From positions 31,480-95,479 of IMG/VR virus record IMGVR_UViG_3300029516_000004: a stretch of DNA of 64,000 nt, one strand, 5' to 3'. The position numbers and the translations under genes were made by a program. Under the pieces are notes generated by a model that saw only the letters and a program-made list of their open reading frames with translations, ran no database searches and had not been told where the DNA came from. The DNA comes from a virus (lineage: Duplodnaviria; Heunggongvirae; Uroviricota; Caudoviricetes). Below are positions 7,860 through 17,346 of this stretch, one piece after another (the first letter of the stretch is position 1; each line of letters starts with the position of its first letter).

Positions 7860-9422
7860 ATGAAAATGACAAGTATTCAACAACGTGCAGAGCTTCATCG
7901 TCAAATCTGGCAAATTGCTAACGATGTCAGGGGTTCGGTCGATGGATGGGATTTTAAGCAATACGTTCTGGGCGCACTTTTCTACCGTTTTATCAGCGAA
8001 AATTTTTCCAGCTATATTGAAGCCGGGGATGACAGTATCTGTTATGCGAAACTGGATGACAGCGTAATTACTGATGACATTAAAGACGATGCTATCAAAA
8101 CTAAAGGCTACTTCATCTACCCCAGTCAGCTTTTCTGCAACGTAGCGGCGAAAGCAAATACCAATGACAGACTGAATGCAGATTTAAACAGCATCTTCGT
8201 TGCTATCGAAAGTTCTGCTTACGGTTATCCTTCAGAAGCTGACATCAAAGGTTTGTTTGCTGATTTCGATACCACCAGTAACCGCCTGGGTAACACCGTT
8301 AAAGATAAAAATGCCCGCCTGGCTGCGGTTCTGAAAGGGGTTGAAGGGTTAAAACTTGGTGACTTCAACGAACATCAGATTGACCTGTTCGGTGATGCCT
8401 ATGAGTTCCTGATCTCTAACTATGCGGCAAATGCCGGTAAGTCAGGCGGCGAGTTCTTTACACCGCAGCACGTCTCTAAGCTGATTGCACAACTGGCTAT
8501 GCACGGGCAGACCCACGTTAACAAAATCTACGACCCGGCAGCAGGCTCCGGTTCGCTGTTGTTGCAGGCTAAAAAACAGTTTGATGACCATATCATCGAA
8601 GAAGGTTTTTTTGGTCAGGAAATCAACCATACGACCTATAACCTGGCGCGTATGAACATGTTTTTGCACAACATCAACTACGACAAGTTTGATATCAAGC
8701 TGGGCAATACGCTGACTGAACCGCACTTCAGAGATGAAAAACCGTTTGATGCCATCGTTTCTAACCCGCCGTATTCGGTGAAATGGATTGGCAGCGATGA
8801 CCCGACGCTGATTAACGATGAACGTTTTGCCCCGGCTGGCGTTCTGGCCCCCAAATCCAAAGCTGACTTTGCGTTTGTATTACATGCGCTGAACTATCTT
8901 TCTGCCAAAGGTCGTGCTGCGATTGTTTGCTTCCCGGGTATTTTTTACCGTGGCGGTGCGGAGCAGAAAATCCGTCAGTATCTGGTCGACAATAACTATG
9001 TCGAAACCGTGATTTCACTGGCACCGAATCTGTTCTTTGGCACCACCATTGCCGTCAATATTCTGGTGCTGTCTAAACATAAAACCGATACCAAAGTTCA
9101 GTTTATTGACGCCAGCGAACTATTCAAAAAAGAGACCAACAACAATATCCTGACCGATGCCCATATCGAACAGATTATGCAGGTATTTGCCAGCAAGGAA
9201 GATGTTGCTCATCTGGCGAAATCAGTCGCGTTTGAGACCGTTGTTGCTAATGACTATAACCTGTCGGTGAGCAGCTATGTTGAAGCGAAAGATACTCGCG
9301 AAATTATCGATATCGCTGAGTTGAATGCAGAGCTGAAAACCACGGTCAGCAAAATCGACCAGTTGCGTAAAGATATTGATGCAATTGTGGCTGAAATTGA
9401 AGGCTGCGAGGTGCAGAAATGA
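7860..9422 (+). CDS. hsdM: Type I R-M N6-adenine DNA methyltransferase HsdM (520 aa)
   Basis: Motif [12 protein letters not shown] and motif IV SNPPY; translationally coupled to hsdS (ATGA overlap). Confidence 0.95.
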
Positions 9423-10636
9423 GCGAGTTGAGTTATCTGGAAAAATTGATGGATGGGGTTGAAGTTGAGTGGTTGCCACTCTCAAAAGTATTCAACTTAA
9501 GGAATGGTTATACACCGTCTAAAACTAAAAAAGAATTTTGGGCGAATGGTGATATACCTTGGTTCAGAATGGATGACATACGTGAAAATGGTAGAATTCT
9601 AGGGAGTTCACTTCAAAAAATTTCATCCTGCGCCGTAAAAGGGGGGAAACTATTTCCTGAAAATTCAATATTAATATCAACGTCGGCAACAATTGGTGAG
9701 CATGCTTTAATCACTGTACCTCATCTAGCCAATCAAAGGTTTACATGTTTGGCTTTAAAAGAGTCTTATGCTGATTGCTTTGATATTAAATTTTTATTTT
9801 ACTACTGTTTTTCTTTAGCTGAGTGGTGCCGAAAAAACACAACGATGTCCAGTTTTGCGTCTGTTGATATGGATGGATTCAAAAAATTTTTAATCCCTCG
9901 CCCCTGCCCGGATAATCCGGAAAAATCCCTTGCCATCCAGTCTGAAATCGTGCGAATTCTGGACAAATTCAGCGCCCTTACTGCAGAGCTTACTGCAGAG
10001 CTTACTGCAGAGCTTAGCATGCGTAAAAAACAATACAACTACTATCGCGACCAGTTGTTGAGTTTTAAAGAGGATGAGGTTGAGGGTAAGAGGAAAACCT
10101 TAGGGGAAATTATGAAGATGCGTGCCGGACAACATATTTCGGCTCATAATATAATTGAAAGAAAAGAAGAGAGTTATATATATCCTTGTTTTGGAGGAAA
10201 TGGCATACGGGGTTACGTCAAAGAAAAAAGTCATGATGGAGAACATCTATTAATAGGGCGACAAGGAGCATTGTGTGGTAATGTTCAAAGAATGAAAGGC
10301 CAGTTCTATGCTACAGAACATGCTGTTGTAGTTTCAGTCATGCCCGGGATTAACATTGACTGGGCATTTCATATGTTAACGGCAATGAATCTAAACCAAT
10401 ATGCTTCAAAATCGGCACAACCGGGACTTGCTGTAGGGAAATTACAGGAATTGAAATTATTTGTCCCTTCAATAGAGAGACAAATATATATTGCCGCAAT
10501 ACTCGATAAATTCGACACTCTGACCAACTCCATCACCGAAGGTCTCCCGCGTGAAATCGAGTTACGCCAGAAACAGTACGAATATTATCGAGATATGCTA
10601 TTTAGTTTCCTGAAGCCGGAAGTAGCAGAGGCATGA
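9419..10636 (+). CDS. hsdS: Type I R-M specificity subunit HsdS, type IC-like (405 aa)
   Basis: Two AT-rich variable TRD-like halves separated by a conserved central region carrying [13 protein letters not shown]; conserved C-terminal repeat region. Confidence 0.92.
9977..10012 (+). repeat. 3 x 12-bp in-frame tandem repeat CTTACTGCAGAG encoding (LTAE)x3 in hsdS central spacer
   Basis: Perfect triplicate at 9977-9988, 9989-10000, 10001-10012, plus partial fourth unit. Confidence 0.95.
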
Positions 10637-10637
10637 C

Positions 10638-11828
10638 ATGGGCAAGACACTCTCGGAAATAGCTCAACAGCTTAGTACGCCTCAGAAAGTCAAGAAGACT
10701 GTCCATAAAGAAGTTGAAGCGACCAGGGCCGTGCCAAAGGTGCAGTTAATCTACGCTTTCAATGGCACGGGGAAAACGCGTCTTTCCCGGGATTTCAAGC
10801 AACTGCTTGAGTCCAAAGTTCATGACGGAGAAGGTGAAGACGAAGCTGAACAGTCCGCGTTGTCGCGCAAAAAAATCCTCTATTATAATGCCTTCACCGA
10901 GGACTTGTTCTATTGGGATAACGATCTGCAAGAAGACGCAGAACCGAAGCTGAAGGTGCAGCCTAACTCCTATACAAACTGGTTGCTGACCTTGCTAAAA
11001 GATTTGGGACAGGATAGCAATATCGTCCGTTATTTCCAGCGCTATGCGAACGACAAGCTAACGCCACACTTCAATCCAGATTTTACCGAAATCACTTTTT
11101 CCATGGAGCGCGGTAACGATGAGCGTTCCGCCCACATCAAGTTATCCAAAGGTGAAGAGAGCAACTTCATCTGGAGTGTGTTTTACACCCTACTGGATCA
11201 AGTGGTAACAATTCTCAATGTCGCTGACCCGGATGCGCGCGAGACCCACGCATTTGATCAACTGAAATATGTATTCATTGATGATCCCGTTAGCTCCCTT
11301 GATGATAACCACTTGATTGAACTGGCGGTTGATCTTGCAGGGCTGATCAAATCCAGCGAATCCGATTTGAAGTTCATTATCACGACACATAGTCCAATAT
11401 TTTATAATGTACTTTTCAATGAGTTGAACGGTAAAGTTTGCTACATGTTGGAAAGTTTTGAGGATGGTACATTTGCCCTCACAGAAAAATATGGCGACTC
11501 TAACAAGAGTTTTTCCTACCATCTCCACCTAAAGCAAACAATCGAACAGGCAATTGCTGACAACAACGTTGAAAGATATCATTTCACGTTACTGCGCAAT
11601 CTTTATGAGAAAACGGCCAGCTTTCTGGGCTACCCTAAATGGTCTGAACTCTTGCCTGACGACAAGCAGCTTTATCTGAGCAGAATCATCAATTTCACAA
11701 GCCACAGCACGCTATCGAATGAGGCCGTTGCAGAGCCAACGCCAGCGGAGAAAGCGACTGTCAAACTGTTGCTCGATCACTTGAAGAACAACTGTGGCTT
11801 CTGGCAGCAGGAACAAAAAAATGGTTGA
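10638..11828 (+). CDS. prrC: PrrC-type anticodon nuclease (396 aa) embedded in hsd locus
   Basis: N-terminal Walker A FNGTGKTR; C-terminal R-x3-E (LRNLYEKT) with His 36 residues later, falling at positions 320/324/356; gene order hsdM-hsdS-prrC-hsdR. Confidence 0.85.
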
Positions 11829-14800
11829 TTGCACCAAACCAATTGCTGAGTCCAATAATTTTATCATTTTGGACAAATACAACCCGGACTGGAAGATTAC
11901 CGAGAGCTACCAGAGCGAAGGTGATCTGGAGCGTGAGCTGATTCAGGATTTGGTTAACCAGGGCTATGAATACCTGCCAACCCTGAACAACACCAAGGCT
12001 ATGCTCGCTAATGTCAGGGAACAGTTGCAAAACCTTAACAATGTAGAGTTCCTGGAGGCTGAATGGCGTCGCTTTGTGGAAACCTGGATGGACAAGCCCA
12101 GCGATGGCGTTGTTGAAAAGGCCCGCAAGATTCATGATGATTATGTTCATGATTTCGTCTTCGACGATGGCCGTATTCAGAATATCTATCTGCTGGATAG
12201 AAAAAACATCCTTCGCAATAAAGTGCAGGTCATCAAGCAGTTTGAACAAGCAGGCACGCACGCCAATCGCTACGATGTCACCATTCTGGTCAATGGCCTG
12301 CCGCTGGTACAAATTGAATTGAAAAAACGTGGTGTAGCGATTCGTGAGGCTTTCAACCAGATACATCGTTACAGTAAAGAGAGTTTTAACAGCGAAAATT
12401 CCCTGTTTAAGTATCTGCAGCTGTTCGTCATTTCCAACGGCACTGATACCCGTTATTTTGCCAACACCACAAAGCGCGATAAAAACAGTTTTGACTTCAC
12501 CATGAACTGGGCTAAATCAGACAATACACTGATTAAAGACCTCAAAGACTTTACCGCTACCTTTTTCCAGAAACATACTCTGCTTAATGTTCTGGTGAAC
12601 TACAGCGTTTTTGACAGCAGTCAGACGCTACTGGTAATGCGACCGTACCAGATTGCCGCCACCGAGCGCATTCTGTGGAAAATTAAGAGTTCCTTTACAG
12701 CGAAGAACTGGTCAAAACCGGAAAGCGGTGGGTATATCTGGCACACTACCGGTTCTGGTAAAACCCTCACCAGCTTTAAAGCCGCGCGTCTGGCAACAGA
12801 ACTGGACTTTATTGATAAAGTTTTCTTTGTGGTCGACAGGAAAGACCTCGATTACCAGACCATGAAGGAATATCAGCGTTTTTCGCCAGACAGCGTCAAC
12901 GGCTCGGAAAATACCGCAGGCCTTAAACGAAATCTGGATAAGGACGATAACAAAATTATCGTCACTACTATTCAGAAACTCAATAACCTGATGAAAGCAG
13001 AAAGCGACCTGCCTGTATATAATCAGCAAGTGGTGTTTATATTTGATGAATGCCACCGCAGCCAGTTTGGAGAAGCGCAGAAAAACCTGAAGAAGAAATT
13101 CAAACGCTATTATCAGTTTGGTTTTACCGGCACCCCTATTTTCCCGGAAAACGCCTTAGGCTCAGAAACAACCGCCAGCGTATTTGGTCGTGAATTGCAT
13201 TCGTATGTAATTACCGATGCGATTCGTGACGAAAAAGTGCTCAAATTCAAGGTGGACTACAACGATGTGCGGCCACAGTTTAAGTCTTTAGAGACAGAAA
13301 CTGACGAGAAAAAACTGAGTGCGGCTGAAAATCAGCAGGCGTTTCTTCATCCCATGCGTATTCAGGAAATCACGCAATATATTCTGAATAATTTCCGCCA
13401 GAAAACCCACCGTACCTTCCCTGGCTCAAAAGGTTTTAATGCTATGTTGGCAGTGAGCAGCGTGGATGCCGCGAAAGCCTATTATGCGACGTTTAAACGG
13501 TTACAAGAAGAAGCCGCTAATAAATCGGCTACCTATAAACCGCTGCGTATTGCGACAATCTTCTCCTTTGCCGCCAATGAAGAACAAAATGCCATTGGTG
13601 AAATTTCCGATGAAACTTTTGATACCAGCGCAATGGACAGCAGTGCTAAAGAGTTTCTGGACGCTGCAATTCGTGAATATAACAGCCATTTTAAAACTAA
13701 CTTTAGCACCGACAGTAACGGTTTTCAGAACTACTATCGTGATTTAGCCCAGCGGGTTAAAAATCAGGATATCGATCTGCTAATTGTCGTGGGGATGTTT
13801 TTAACCGGTTTCGATGCTCCAACATTAAACACGCTATTCGTCGATAAAAACTTGCGTTTTCACGGCCTGATGCAGGCATTCTCCCGCACCAACCGCATTT
13901 ATGACGCGACTAAAACCTTCGGTAATATTGTCACGTTCCGAGATCTGGAACGCTCAACCATTGATGCCATAACGCTGTTTGGTGACAAAAATACCAAAAA
14001 TGTGGTTTTAGAAAAGAGTTATGCAGAGTATATGGAAGGCTTTACTGATGCTGCCACTGGTGAAGCTAAGCGCGGCTTTATGGCAGTAGTTTCAGAACTG
14101 GAACAACGGTTCCCTGACCCTACCAGTATTGAAAGTGAAAAAGAGAAGAAAGACTTCGTTAAACTGTTTGGTGAATACCTGCGTGCCGAGAACATCCTGC
14201 AAAACTATGATGAATTTGCCACGCTGAAAGCCCTGCAACAAATCGATCTTAGCGATCCTGTTGCGGTAGAAAAATTCAAAGAAGAACATTATGTGGATGA
14301 TGAAAAGTTCGCTGAATTGCAAACGATTCGTCTCCCTGCTGAACGCAAGATTCAGGATTATCGTTCTGCCTATAACGATATTCGTGACTGGCAGCGCCGC
14401 GAGAAAGAAGCTGATAAAAAAGAAAAATCAACCACTGACTGGGATGACGTGGTTTTTGAGGTCGATTTGCTGAAGTCTCAGGAAATAAACCTGGATTATA
14501 TCCTTGGACTGATTTTCGAACACAACAGACAAAATAAAGGCAAGGGCGAAATGATCGAAGAGGTCAAACGCTTAATTCGTTCAAGCCTGGGGAACCGGGC
14601 GAAAGAGGGCCTGGTGGTCGATTTTATTCAGCAAACGAACCTGGATGATTTACCAGACAAAGCCAGTATCATTGAGGCATTCTTTACGTTTGCTCAACGC
14701 GAACAGCAACGTGAAGCAGAAGCATTGATAAAAGAAGAAAATCTCAATGAAGATGCAGCAAAACGCTATATTCGCACGTCTTTAAAACGCGAATACGCCA

Positions 14801-14940
14801 CCGAAAATGGCACAGAATTAAACGAAACATTACCAAAACTTAGTCCGTTGAATCCGCAATATAAAACGAAAAAACAGGCAGTTTTCCAGAAAATCGTCTC
14901 GTTTATTGAGAAGTTTAAAGGCGTAGGCGGAAAAATATAG
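11821..14940 (+). CDS. hsdR: Type I R-M restriction endonuclease/translocase HsdR
   Basis: PD-(D/E)xK-like D..ELK ([18 protein letters not shown]), helicase motif I HTTGSGKT, motif II DECH; ORF-track start 11794 lacks RBS, ATG at 11821 has AGGAAC RBS. Confidence 0.93.
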
Positions 14941-14956
14941 CCCAATTCGTGTTTTT

Positions 14957-14984
14957 CTTGCGGGTTCTTAATTAAACCCGCAAG
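14957..14984. other. 10-bp-stem hairpin downstream of hsdR
   Basis: CTTGCGGGTT-cttaatta-AACCCGCAAG perfect inverted repeat; no U-tract on either strand. Confidence 0.4.
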
Positions 14985-15019
14985 AGCTCGTGGGGTTCCA
15001 AATGGCTAATATACTCCCC

Positions 15020-15106
15020 TTACCCATGCGCGACGATGCCGCCAAAAGTGATAGAGAACAGCCAGAAATAGATCGCGGCCATAATGATTTTGAATGCCGT
15101 GTTCAT
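15020..15106 (-). CDS. candidate small hydrophobic peptide (28 aa)
   Basis: Manual translation MNTAFKIIMAAIYFWLFSITFGGIVAHG; AGGAG RBS 7 nt upstream; below ORF-track size cut-off; downstream of a C1 operator. Confidence 0.3.
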   Translation of the reverse strand: MNTAFKIIMAAIYFWLFSITFGGIVAHG

Positions 15107-15134
15107 ATTTTCAGCTCCTGTGATTGATTGGATA

Positions 15135-15165
15135 CATGCCGCGCCTTGCGGCATGTTTTTATTTT
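15135..15165 (+). terminator. rho-independent terminator ending the hsd operon
   Basis: CATGCCGC-gcctt-GCGGCATG 8-bp stem followed by TTTTTATTTT. Confidence 0.65.
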
Positions 15166-15188
15166 CACTTCCCCTGCCTTAAAAATCT

Positions 15189-15205
15189 ATATTTATTAGA
15201 GCAAT
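15189..15205. promoter_or_regulatory. C1 operator 17-mer at the distal edge of the hsd island
   Basis: ATATTTATTAGAGCAAT (16/17, reverse orientation); candidate -35 TTCATC and -10 TAAATA overlap on minus strand. Confidence 0.65.
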
Positions 15206-15711
15206 TATTGTTGATGAAGAAGCGCATTTTCATACTCCCTGACCATTAATGTAAGTACGCCGTGACTCCTGAAAACACGCGCCACTTCAATCTTATCTTC
15301 CAGCGCGAACGCAATTTTACTTAGACCAATTTTCTTCAGGAGATCAATCTTTGCTGGACCGTCATTTCTGTCATCGGTGGCAGGACGCATAGATAGCAAA
15401 GGCTCCGCCCCATTTGTTACGTGCTTACGCAACCAGGCTCGTGTTTTATCCCTGGCTATCTCACAGCGCCCGGTTACAAACCAGAGGGTGTAAATGCCGG
15501 ACAACTGGCGCACCATATCAATAACTGGAGTGATGGGAGCATCAGTGTCACAGGCAAGGTTAAACTCGTTCCAGTGCTCTGTTAATGCACCTTTGCCAGG
15601 TGGTGGAAGTAAATGCAGCCTGTCTTCCGTTGCCTCTGATATCGTCCCATCAATATCTACTATGACGATGTACGGACGTTCCTGGTGTGCGTGTTTATTG
15701 AAAATACTCAA
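15205..15711 (-). CDS. HAD-superfamily phosphatase-like protein (168 aa)
   Basis: N-terminal VIVDIDGTIS (DxDGT catalytic motif of HAD phosphatases, as in polynucleotide 3'-phosphatases). Confidence 0.7.
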   Translation of the reverse strand: MSIFNKHAHQERPYIVIVDIDGTISEATEDRLHLLPPPGKGALTEHWNEFNLACDTDAPITPVIDMVRQLSGIYTLWFVTGRCEIARDKTRAWLRKHVTNGAEPLLSMRPATDDRNDGPAKIDLLKKIGLSKIAFALEDKIEVARVFRSHGVLTLMVREYENALLHQQ

Positions 15712-17280: not shown

Positions 17281-17346
17281 ATTGCTCTAATAAAAAACGT
17301 GATGAGTGTACATCACGTTTTAAAAATATGGAATTATTAGAGCAAT
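17281..17346. promoter_or_regulatory. two inverted C1 operator-like 17-mers flanking a bidirectional terminator hairpin
   Basis: ATTGCTCTAATAAAAAA (17281-17297), hairpin ACGTGATG-agtgta-CATCACGT with flanking A/T runs, then GGAATTATTAGAGCAAT (17330-17346). Confidence 0.6.

Follow-up and report, generated by a model that had tools for sequence, protein, structure and literature searches.

Is a hydrophobic open reading frame (ORF) of 28 codons, situated behind an operator of the phage repressor C1 and beside the restriction gene hsdR, a gene, and what would its product do? The question was raised by a DNA stretch of 64,000 nucleotides from a virus of the Caudoviricetes (positions 31,480 to 95,479 of record IMGVR_UViG_3300029516_000004, in the following the window), in which an original prediction from the letters alone had pointed out this small ORF. 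The observation was confirmed and its interpretation partly supported: the pattern of substitutions marks the small ORF as a real, unstudied small membrane-protein gene under purifying selection across diverged relatives. All coordinates of the ORF, operator, promoter and hairpin refer to the minus strand of the window, where the unit consists of the following features:

15189..15205, minus strand: C1 repressor operator ATTGCTCTAATAAATAT, equivalent to P1 Op88/OpmgT and P7 Op(hea)
15161..15189, minus strand: predicted sigma-70 promoter (Lobocka's P1pmgT), -35 TAGATT at 15189-15184, 17-nucleotide (nt) spacer, -10 GAAAAT at 15166-15161
15134..15156, minus strand: GC-rich stem-loop ACATGCCGC-aaggc-GCGGCATGT at the predicted mRNA 5' end
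15107..15133, minus strand: unstructured CA-rich initiation region CCAATCAATCAC with the Shine-Dalgarno sequence (SD) AGGAG at 15119-15115, unpaired in all folds
15020..15106, minus strand: small ORF of 28 codons plus stop, ATG at 15106-15104, TAA at 15022-15020, first cistron of the Op88 operon
15013..15019, minus strand: junction of backbone and hsd island, pmgT Shine-Dalgarno remnant TAAGGGG followed by island sequence AGTATATTAGCC

By itself, a frame of 28 codons is no evidence of a gene, since 61 ORFs of at least 20 amino acids overlap the 3.5 kb around it. The ribosome-binding site that the prediction had called perfect was present, with the SD 8 nt upstream of the ATG. In BLAST searches the window was identified as a P1-like phage-plasmid, from 15016 upward 94-98 % identical to P1, P7, SJ46, RCS47, JL22 and others; pap, operator, leader and ORF reached 95.8-97.6 % identity to P1 records and are homologous to P1 84293-84482. 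The homology to P1 and P7 ends 4 nt past the stop codon of the small ORF (BLAST boundary at query position 317, window position 15016). The prediction had placed the ORF at the edge of the hsd island; the island junction at 15016/15015 does adjoin it, but by this alignment the ORF belongs to the P1 backbone, outside the island. The suggested comparison with P1 and P7 revealed the same operator, hairpin and ORF at the homologous position. The locus is that of P1 Op88/OpmgT (AF234172 84293-84487, the 180-nt leader of pmgT) and of P7 Op(hea), with about 96 % nucleotide identity, and this leader is without an annotated gene in the records of both phages. P1 and P7 keep the operon body (pmgT..humD in P1) and a -35 hexamer TTGATT, while the window has an inverted hsd-prrC island and TAGATT.

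Selection on the small reading frame

Relatives were obtained from three Salmonella phage-plasmids, Cronobacter phage JK004 and the assembled contigs L098-L100 of about 90 kb, which form two groups. Together with the P1-type this presents five lineages (P1-type, Salmonella, JK004, L098 and L100). The match in Salmonella plasmid pCFSAN058588, found by tblastn with the peptide as query, was 58 % identical and syntenic, directly after pmgS. Homologous ORFs directly after pmgS/pap, together with the same operator, were present in the Salmonella plasmids, in JK004 and in L098-L100, and the latter contigs share the P1-like synteny. A scan of IMG/VR with PmgS yielded only P1-type loci of 99-100 % identity, which were used for polymorphism counts and not for divergence, and a scan of genome contigs with Pap returned only two near-identical E. 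coli loci. The P1-type sample comprised 66 loci, 53 of the pmgT/hea-type and 13 of the hsd-type. The encoded peptides are:

P1-type, 28 amino acids: MNTAFKIIMAAIYFWLFSITFGGIVAHG
Salmonella, 46 amino acids: MHTVFKLAMAAFYIWIFTIVFTGIAKATPVNASEVGVRTIYCDLGE
JK004, 53 amino acids: MHLIFKLAITAFYAWMLTVVITSFKPDANMKASRYLGNLSASYDCDQQGDDSL
L098, 53 amino acids: MQVLIKLAVTAFFVWLFTIAVTSFKPDANMRASRHLGNLSASYDCDQQEAGAE

The proportions of synonymous (pS) and nonsynonymous (pN) differences were calculated according to Nei-Gojobori for the first 25 codons:

P1-type and Salmonella: pS 0.84, pN 0.28
Salmonella and JK004: pS 0.79, pN 0.29
Salmonella and L098: pS 1.0, pN 0.33
L098 and L100: pS 0.30, pN 0.04

Between the lineages synonymous change was thus near saturation (pS 0.8-1.0) at a pN of about 0.3. 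In shifted frames the excess of pS over pN was smaller (+1) or reversed (+2). Start codon, reading frame and SD were kept at the syntenic site in all five lineages. Within the P1-type the ORF was intact in all 66 loci, free of frameshift and nonsense mutations, and the peptide was identical in 57 of them, among these 50 of the 53 pmgT/hea-type loci. A disruption or loss of the ORF in relatives that keep the operator, named in the prediction as the observation that would speak against it, was encountered neither in these loci nor in the four other lineages, which have homologues. The nonsynonymous diversity (piN) of the small ORF in the pmgT/hea-type clade was 0.002 versus a synonymous diversity (piS) of 0.032, a ratio of about 0.06. 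Within the P1 clade this piS is 4-9 times lower than that of pap (0.141) and of the first 30 codons of pmgT/upf86.8 (0.278). Window positions 15020-15205 form a small island of nucleotide-level conservation within this clade.

Some annotation pipelines have called a longer form of 44 amino acids, named 'membrane protein' or 'hypothetical protein' (SJ46 AMR60016.1, JL22 gp98, phi456 Orf75). We rejected this form, because it would start from an ATG within the hairpin, where the transcript itself is predicted to begin. No lineage other than the P1-type has an upstream ATG in frame, and the start of the 28-codon frame is therefore the conserved one. Searched with a hidden Markov model of the family, a set of 1.84 billion representative proteins yielded only 11 clusters, and none came from outside this group.

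The hydropathy profile exhibits one transmembrane segment, residues 7-25 (best 19-residue window 2.10, grand average of hydropathy 1.30), in agreement with the single helix expected from the original reading. K6 is located on the N-terminal side of the segment, no charged residue follows it, and the peptide ends with ...GGIVAHG. AlphaFold2 modelled a 53-residue homolog as a helix of residues 2-23 with a predicted local distance difference test score of 86-90 and a tail of low confidence. M1, K6, A11 and W15 are invariant across the lineages, and F/I5, Y/F13 and S/T18 are conservative exchanges. On a helix, K6, A11, Y/F13, W15, S/T18 and G/T22 would fall roughly on one face, as if the helix packed against a second copy of itself or a membrane protein of the host. 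The 53-residue forms keep a tail motif, SFKPDANM..SYDCDQQ, with a pN/pS of 0.2-0.4. In a relative rate comparison pN was 0.50 for P1-JK004, 0.29 for Salmonella-JK004 and 0.28 for P1-Salmonella. Seen next to its relatives, the 28-residue P1 form appears as a truncated, faster-evolving derivative of an ancestor of 46-53 residues with a periplasmic tail; all substitutions on the P1 branch preserve the hydrophobic helix.

Operator, promoter and leader

The operator ATTGCTCTAATAAATAT, located at 15189-15205 as originally proposed, matches the asymmetric 17-bp C1 consensus ATTGCTCTAATAAATTT in 16 of 17 positions. The operator begins on the final base of the pap stop codon; pap, on the minus strand, ends at 15205 immediately 5' of the leader of the small ORF. 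The 17-mer is identical to the sequence at the position annotated Op(hea) in P7 and maps to AF234172 84293-84309, annotated as 'monovalent C1-controlled operator OpmgT; former Op88'. The match is not a chance event, since the window has 14 C1-operator-like 17-mers with at most 3 mismatches, compared to 0.36 expected by chance. These 14 sites span 987-51489. Two of them, at 30805-30832, converge and overlap, and another pair, at 17281-17346, is the counterpart of P1 Op86a/b, located ahead of pmgR.

The P1 record annotates the promoters P1pmgT and P2pmgT as predicted and overlapping the operator; in the window the predicted transcription start is near 15154. The operator core is common to all five lineages and the positions of the hexamers are kept: a -35 element T(T/A)G(A/T)TT from the last operator base, a 17-nt spacer and a -10 element nAnAAT. 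The plausible -35/-10 below the operator had thus been recognized correctly as to position, but the -35 element of the window is a degenerate TAGATT, compared to TTGATT in 59 of the 66 sampled P1-type loci. The operator marks the Op88 promoter as one of the early, C1-repressed kind. The lysis genes of P1 are expressed late and Lpa-dependent, unlike genes behind early C1-repressed promoters.

The hairpin in the leader has a stem of 9-10 bp, instead of the 8 bp counted before, and folds with about -19 kcal/mol (z = -3.0). It lies 4-7 nt downstream of the -10 element in all five lineages and differs in sequence between them: the arms are ACATGCCGC/GCGGCATGT in P1, AGGCCAC/GTGGCCT in Salmonella, GGCCGC/GCGGCC in JK004, GGCGGTCGC/GTGACCGCC in L098 and GGCAGTCAC/GTGACTGCC in L100. 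From L098 to L100 there is one compensatory change, G:C to A:T, and one further change, G:U to A:U. Folds of the whole leader had -15 to -20 kcal/mol in the five lineages, all with the hairpin and with unpaired SD and AUG. The MAFFT alignment left the diverged hairpins out of register, thus no formal covariation count was made and pairing was judged from the folds of the single sequences and the compensatory pair in L098/L100. Because it is predicted at the same position in all lineages despite different sequences, we read the hairpin as a predicted 5'-terminal stem-loop of the mRNA. Downstream of it follows the initiation region, where conservation in the leader is highest, with CCAATCA..GGAGC..TATG nearly invariant across the five lineages.

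On the plus strand the same hairpin is followed by a T-run, TTTTTATTTTC, and was detected as terminator-like by a terminator scan; this second role, also claimed in the prediction, stands. No other strong terminator-like site follows hsdR on that strand, and the hairpin could stop read-through from hsdR. The T-run is confined to the P1-type and absent from the four other lineages; since it is the complement of the -10/start region, the terminator property is restricted to the P1-type. A cis-antisense RNA ending at this plus-strand terminator was considered and rejected, no promoter being found for it and the T-run not being conserved. An attenuation leader peptide found no support either: the only stable hairpin is upstream of the SD, and in no lineage does a terminator separate the ORF from the gene that follows.

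The conserved head of the Op88/OpmgT operon thus consists of an operator over a sigma-70 promoter, a 5' stem-loop, an open CA-rich ribosome-binding region and the small gene. In P1 and P7 it is followed by pmgT/upf86.8, which starts 9 nt after the stop, and by hypervariable accessory genes.

The hsd-prrC island and the variable region behind the head

In the P1 record the operator is followed 180 nt later by pmgT-pmgU-pmgV. Neither these genes nor the hea genes of P7 were found after the small ORF in the window; an inverted hsd-prrC island is located there instead:

7860..14940, plus strand: inverted type IC restriction island, replacing P1 pmgT..humD and convergent with the small ORF
7860-9422, plus strand: hsdM (Pfam N6_Mtase/HsdM_N)
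9419-10636, plus strand: hsdS (Pfam Methylase_S)
10638-11828, plus strand: prrC, 396 amino acids, PrrC anticodon nuclease (PADLOC PrrC 6e-148; Pfam AAA_13)
11794-14940, plus strand: hsdR (from the ORF list)

As the ORF between hsdS and hsdR is PrrC, the island is a prr-type type IC locus on a P1-like phage-plasmid. Towards phd, sequence homologous to P1 begins again at about 7759. Because hsdM-hsdS-prrC-hsdR replaced the operon body, the small gene is the sole cistron left of the Op88 operon. At the junction P1 and P7 read TAAGGGGGATGCATGAAAGG, the start of pmgT/upf86.8, versus TAAGGGGAGTATATTAGCC in the window; in the longer junction sequence, CATGGGTAAGGGGGATGCATGAAAGG in P1 and P7 ends with the ATG of pmgT/upf86.8, and the window has CATGGGTAAGGGGAGTATATTAGCC. 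The neighbours of the small ORF in the window are pap, pmgS and hsdR, without lysis genes.

The notes of the P1 record state that 84263-84482 is 96 % identical to the sequence downstream of the EcoDXXI hsd locus and 84399-84482 98 % identical to that downstream of the R124/3 hsdR. P1-homologous flanks of the plasmid type IC hsd loci EcoDXXI, EcoR124/3 and EcoprrI were reportedly the subject of work by Tyndall et al. in 1997 (Mol Microbiol 23:729). These loci have the same P1 junction; the window has prrC between hsdS and hsdR. A gene in the shared flank is mentioned neither in the GenBank notes nor in any searchable paper. Operator, promoter prediction and hsd/P1 edge were therefore already known, being annotated or noted in the P1 GenBank record. 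New is the small ORF as a conserved, selected gene, uncharacterised and of a familiar kind, a small phage membrane protein heading an early accessory operon. The stretch pmgT..humD corresponds to 'variable region 8' of P1-like elements (PMC9603915), and the P1 genes within this region are non-essential (PMC10695390).

On the minus strand no terminator-like site was present between the stop codon of the small ORF and the 3' end of hsdR, and the first weak one is at 14324. A transcript of the small ORF would therefore run antisense into the 3' end of hsdR, as had been predicted, and presumably continue there until Rho or the weak terminator stops transcription. Between the small ORF and hsdR, in the hsd flank, there is a 10-bp hairpin, CTTGCGGGTT/AACCCGCAAG, at 14962-14995. 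In neither direction does it form a canonical terminator, since the T-run precedes it on the plus strand and the A-run follows it on the minus strand.

The hsd-type elements differed from the other P1-type loci in the operon head. The hexamers TTGATT/GAAAAT were present in 53 of 53 pmgT/hea-type loci and altered in 8 of 13 hsd-type loci, the window included (Fisher p = 2e-7), namely to TAGATT (window), TTTATT, TTGCTT, TTGATC, TTGACC together with AAAAAT, or GAAGAT. Variant peptides occurred in 6 of the 13 hsd-type versus 3 of the 53 pmgT/hea-type loci (p = 0.001), these loci not being phylogenetically independent counts, and piN of the small ORF was 0.012 versus 0.002. The backbone diversity was similar, with a nucleotide diversity of pap of 0.053 in the hsd-type and 0.044 in the pmgT/hea-type, and the small ORF was intact in 13 of 13 hsd-type loci. 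To judge from these loci, the constraint on the operon head, an orphan in the hsd-type, is relaxed once the body has been replaced; the direction is clear. The unit in the window is an intact orphan and probably still inducible. In about 350 plasmids of incompatibility group F (IncF) a type IC hsd locus is followed by a small ORF cut by IS1 inside codon 3, promoter and start codon are missing, and these copies have to be seen as dead. Among 5,426 complete E. coli genomes 885 had a match, 564 with the full unit and about 320 with the IS1-truncated copy only. In the IncF plasmids pA0086 and pMRSN346638_67.9 (loci L008, 5006/5007, and L009) hsdMSR precedes the IS1-cut remnant, and a gene for an S-4TM pore-forming effector adjoins.

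Five independent deletion variants of P1-type elements (L094, L096, L097, L101, L102) have one and the same left endpoint, ...CATGGGTA|, within the TAA of the small ORF (15020-15022). On the right, each deletion ends at a place of its own: within P7 upf87.4, upstream of humD, 3 kb into an Ead/Ea22 cassette, within pmgT and within a DUF551 gene. Microhomology amounted to only 0-3 nt. The hsd junction lies 5 nt beyond the shared endpoint, and IS1 insertions were observed at three other positions within about 90 nt. A deletion that selection allows to remove the pmgT start but not the ORF could end anywhere within about 14 nt, so that chance would not be expected to produce the same endpoint five times. 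Compared by eye, the endpoint had no convincing likeness to loxP, cix or Xer (dif/cer) sites. The shared endpoints, the hsd junction 5 nt away and the unusually low synonymous diversity led to the idea that the operon head is a dedicated cassette-acceptor site, used via an unrecognised site-specific cleavage or recombination. We regard this as speculative and rather doubtful. If true, accessory and defence cassettes of P1-like phage-plasmids would be exchanged through it, while the C1-controlled promoter and the small gene in front of them stay fixed.

Function of the operon head

The alignments and folds establish the identity with P1 Op88, the purifying selection across lineages and the conserved layout of promoter, stem-loop and initiation region. 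As explanation we favour, with some reservation, a C1-repressed early transcript with a protective 5' stem-loop, whose first cistron would encode an inner-membrane peptide with cytoplasmic N-terminus (N-in) that acts via its transmembrane helix. In the lysogen, C1 bound to the operator would occlude the -35 element, as expected from their overlap and from the established biology of P1. Once C1 is inactivated, transcription would begin at the base of the stem-loop, whose most likely role is protection of the mRNA at its 5' end. The small ORF would be translated from its strong SD, the product may insert as N-in transmembrane helix, and its conserved face may pack against itself or a host membrane protein. 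Small inner-membrane regulators of enterobacteria (MgrB, AcrZ, MgtR, MgtS, KdpF) likewise have less than 50 residues and one helix with a small/aromatic face suggesting packing. Unlike MgrB- or AcrZ-type proteins, the small ORF is phage-borne, C1-repressed and at the head of an accessory operon, and has no sequence relationship to them (no Pfam or NCBIfam match).

Several observations weigh against this explanation or limit it. The conservation is partly at nucleotide level and need not reflect the peptide, since piS of the small ORF is 4-9 times below that of its flanks. The promoter and the transcription start are predictions. No member of the family had a match in Pfam, PHROGs, NCBIfam or PADLOC; the family being tiny and without match to any known family, a function cannot be transferred from a relative. 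Literature searches found no paper on the small ORF and no translation, expression or localisation data for family members; the main text of the P1vir RNA sequencing paper does not include the Op88/small-ORF region. The P1 form has lost the C-terminal tail of 20-25 residues of its relatives, and the rates place most of the amino-acid change since the Salmonella split on the P1 branch. Each of the five deletions replaces the stop codon and extends the ORF by 9-37 unrelated residues, and these rare variants persist. The dependence among the hsd-type and pmgT/hea-type loci has to be counted here as well.

The small ORF could alternatively be a leader ORF that matters for being translated only: its translation would prevent Rho termination and feed the next gene by termination-reinitiation, the peptide being a tolerated by-product. 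The stop codon is always beside the next start, with an ATGA overlap in JK004, L098 and L100, a distance of 4 nt in Salmonella and of 9 nt in P1, where the SD of pmgT abuts the stop of the small ORF. Promoter-proximal phage ORFs that are coupled in translation likewise overlap or abut the next start. The next gene is PmgT/Upf86.8 (phrog_874) in P1 and P7. In the non-P1 lineages it encodes a winged-helix protein of about 90-104 amino acids that matches PHROG 142 'Ren-like exclusion protein' (L010 4146-4418, L091 3659-3973, L098 4159-4473). Coupling is also consistent with the high conservation of the initiation region, with the low piS relative to both neighbours, with a constraint on promoter and peptide that relaxes jointly once the downstream operon is gone, and with the tolerance of unrelated C-terminal extensions. 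It would, however, not need the amino-acid pattern, with M1, K6, A11 and W15 invariant, that is kept although the synonymous sites are saturated, nor the selected tail motif of the 53-residue forms. In contrast to a mere coupling device, the peptide itself is under purifying selection, and we consider this explanation unlikely, though it deserves attention. For the same reason the remnant leader peptide of a displaced operon, one of the originally proposed roles, holds only in part: the ORF is the promoter-proximal cistron of the displaced Op88/pmgT operon, but not a mere leader remnant, since its peptide is under purifying selection across diverged relatives.

A decaying relic, that is, a truncated, functionless leftover that persists only because of its place, with a promoter before it and a ribosome-binding site behind it that are both needed, would fit the lost tail and the faster amino-acid change on the P1 branch, the stop-destroying deletions and IS1 insertions in and around the ORF, and the about 320 E. 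coli genomes that hold only the IS1-truncated IncF copy. We consider it improbable: piN/piS is about 0.06 in the pmgT/hea-type with 50 of 53 peptides identical, although the adjoining pap has a piS of 0.14; all 66 loci are free of frameshift and nonsense mutations; the substitutions on the P1 branch keep the hydrophobic helix; and the IncF copies, without promoter and start codon, are not comparable.

An equally small chance is given to a membrane toxin, type I toxin-like or holin-like, that induction would set free to depolarise or kill the host, the other role named in the original prediction. The peptide is similar in size and hydrophobicity to TisB, Ibs, ShoB and Hok-type peptides, the expression is tightly C1-repressed in the lysogen, and in the P1-type an opposite-strand terminator lies just upstream of the ribosome-binding site, where a cis-antisense RNA would end. 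However, the conserved segment 15016-15133 has no promoter-like site on the plus strand, the sole Rfam match was GcvB with 20 bits versus a threshold of 42, and the opposite-strand T-run is missing in the four other lineages. Type I toxins (Hok/Sok, TisB/IstR-1, Ibs/Sib, Ldr/Rdl, ShoB/OhsC) are likewise short hydrophobic peptides kept off at rest; the small ORF differs by its transcriptional repression through C1 and by the absence of a conserved antisense RNA gene and of a translation-blocking fold, SD and AUG being predicted open. As a holin, the 28-residue form would be without a charged C-terminal domain, and its neighbours are pap, pmgS and accessory genes rather than lysis genes, behind an early C1-repressed promoter. 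The toxin or holin role was thus not borne out. A conserved non-coding cis element (terminator, RNA or recombination site) with an incidental ORF is very improbable: it would agree with the low synonymous diversity in the P1 clade, the P1-type hairpin that doubles as plus-strand terminator and the five deletions with one endpoint at the stop codon, but across lineages most synonymous sites have diverged while frame, start codon and peptide pattern were kept, and of the hairpin the position and pairing are conserved, not the sequence.

With the C1-repressed membrane peptide as the favoured explanation, the finding concerns a phage long used as a model and often resident in E. coli, whose reference annotations are without a gene at this place. 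The early programme of P1 would gain a gene for a conserved small membrane protein under repressor control, at the head of its most variable accessory region. The small gene also marks a defined left boundary of a hot spot at which type IC restriction/PrrC islands and Ead/Ea22, DUF551 and methylase cassettes are exchanged. The hsd-type elements present an operon head after the replacement of its body, when promoter and peptide begin to drift, and their convergent arrangement predicts antisense transcription into hsdR on induction.

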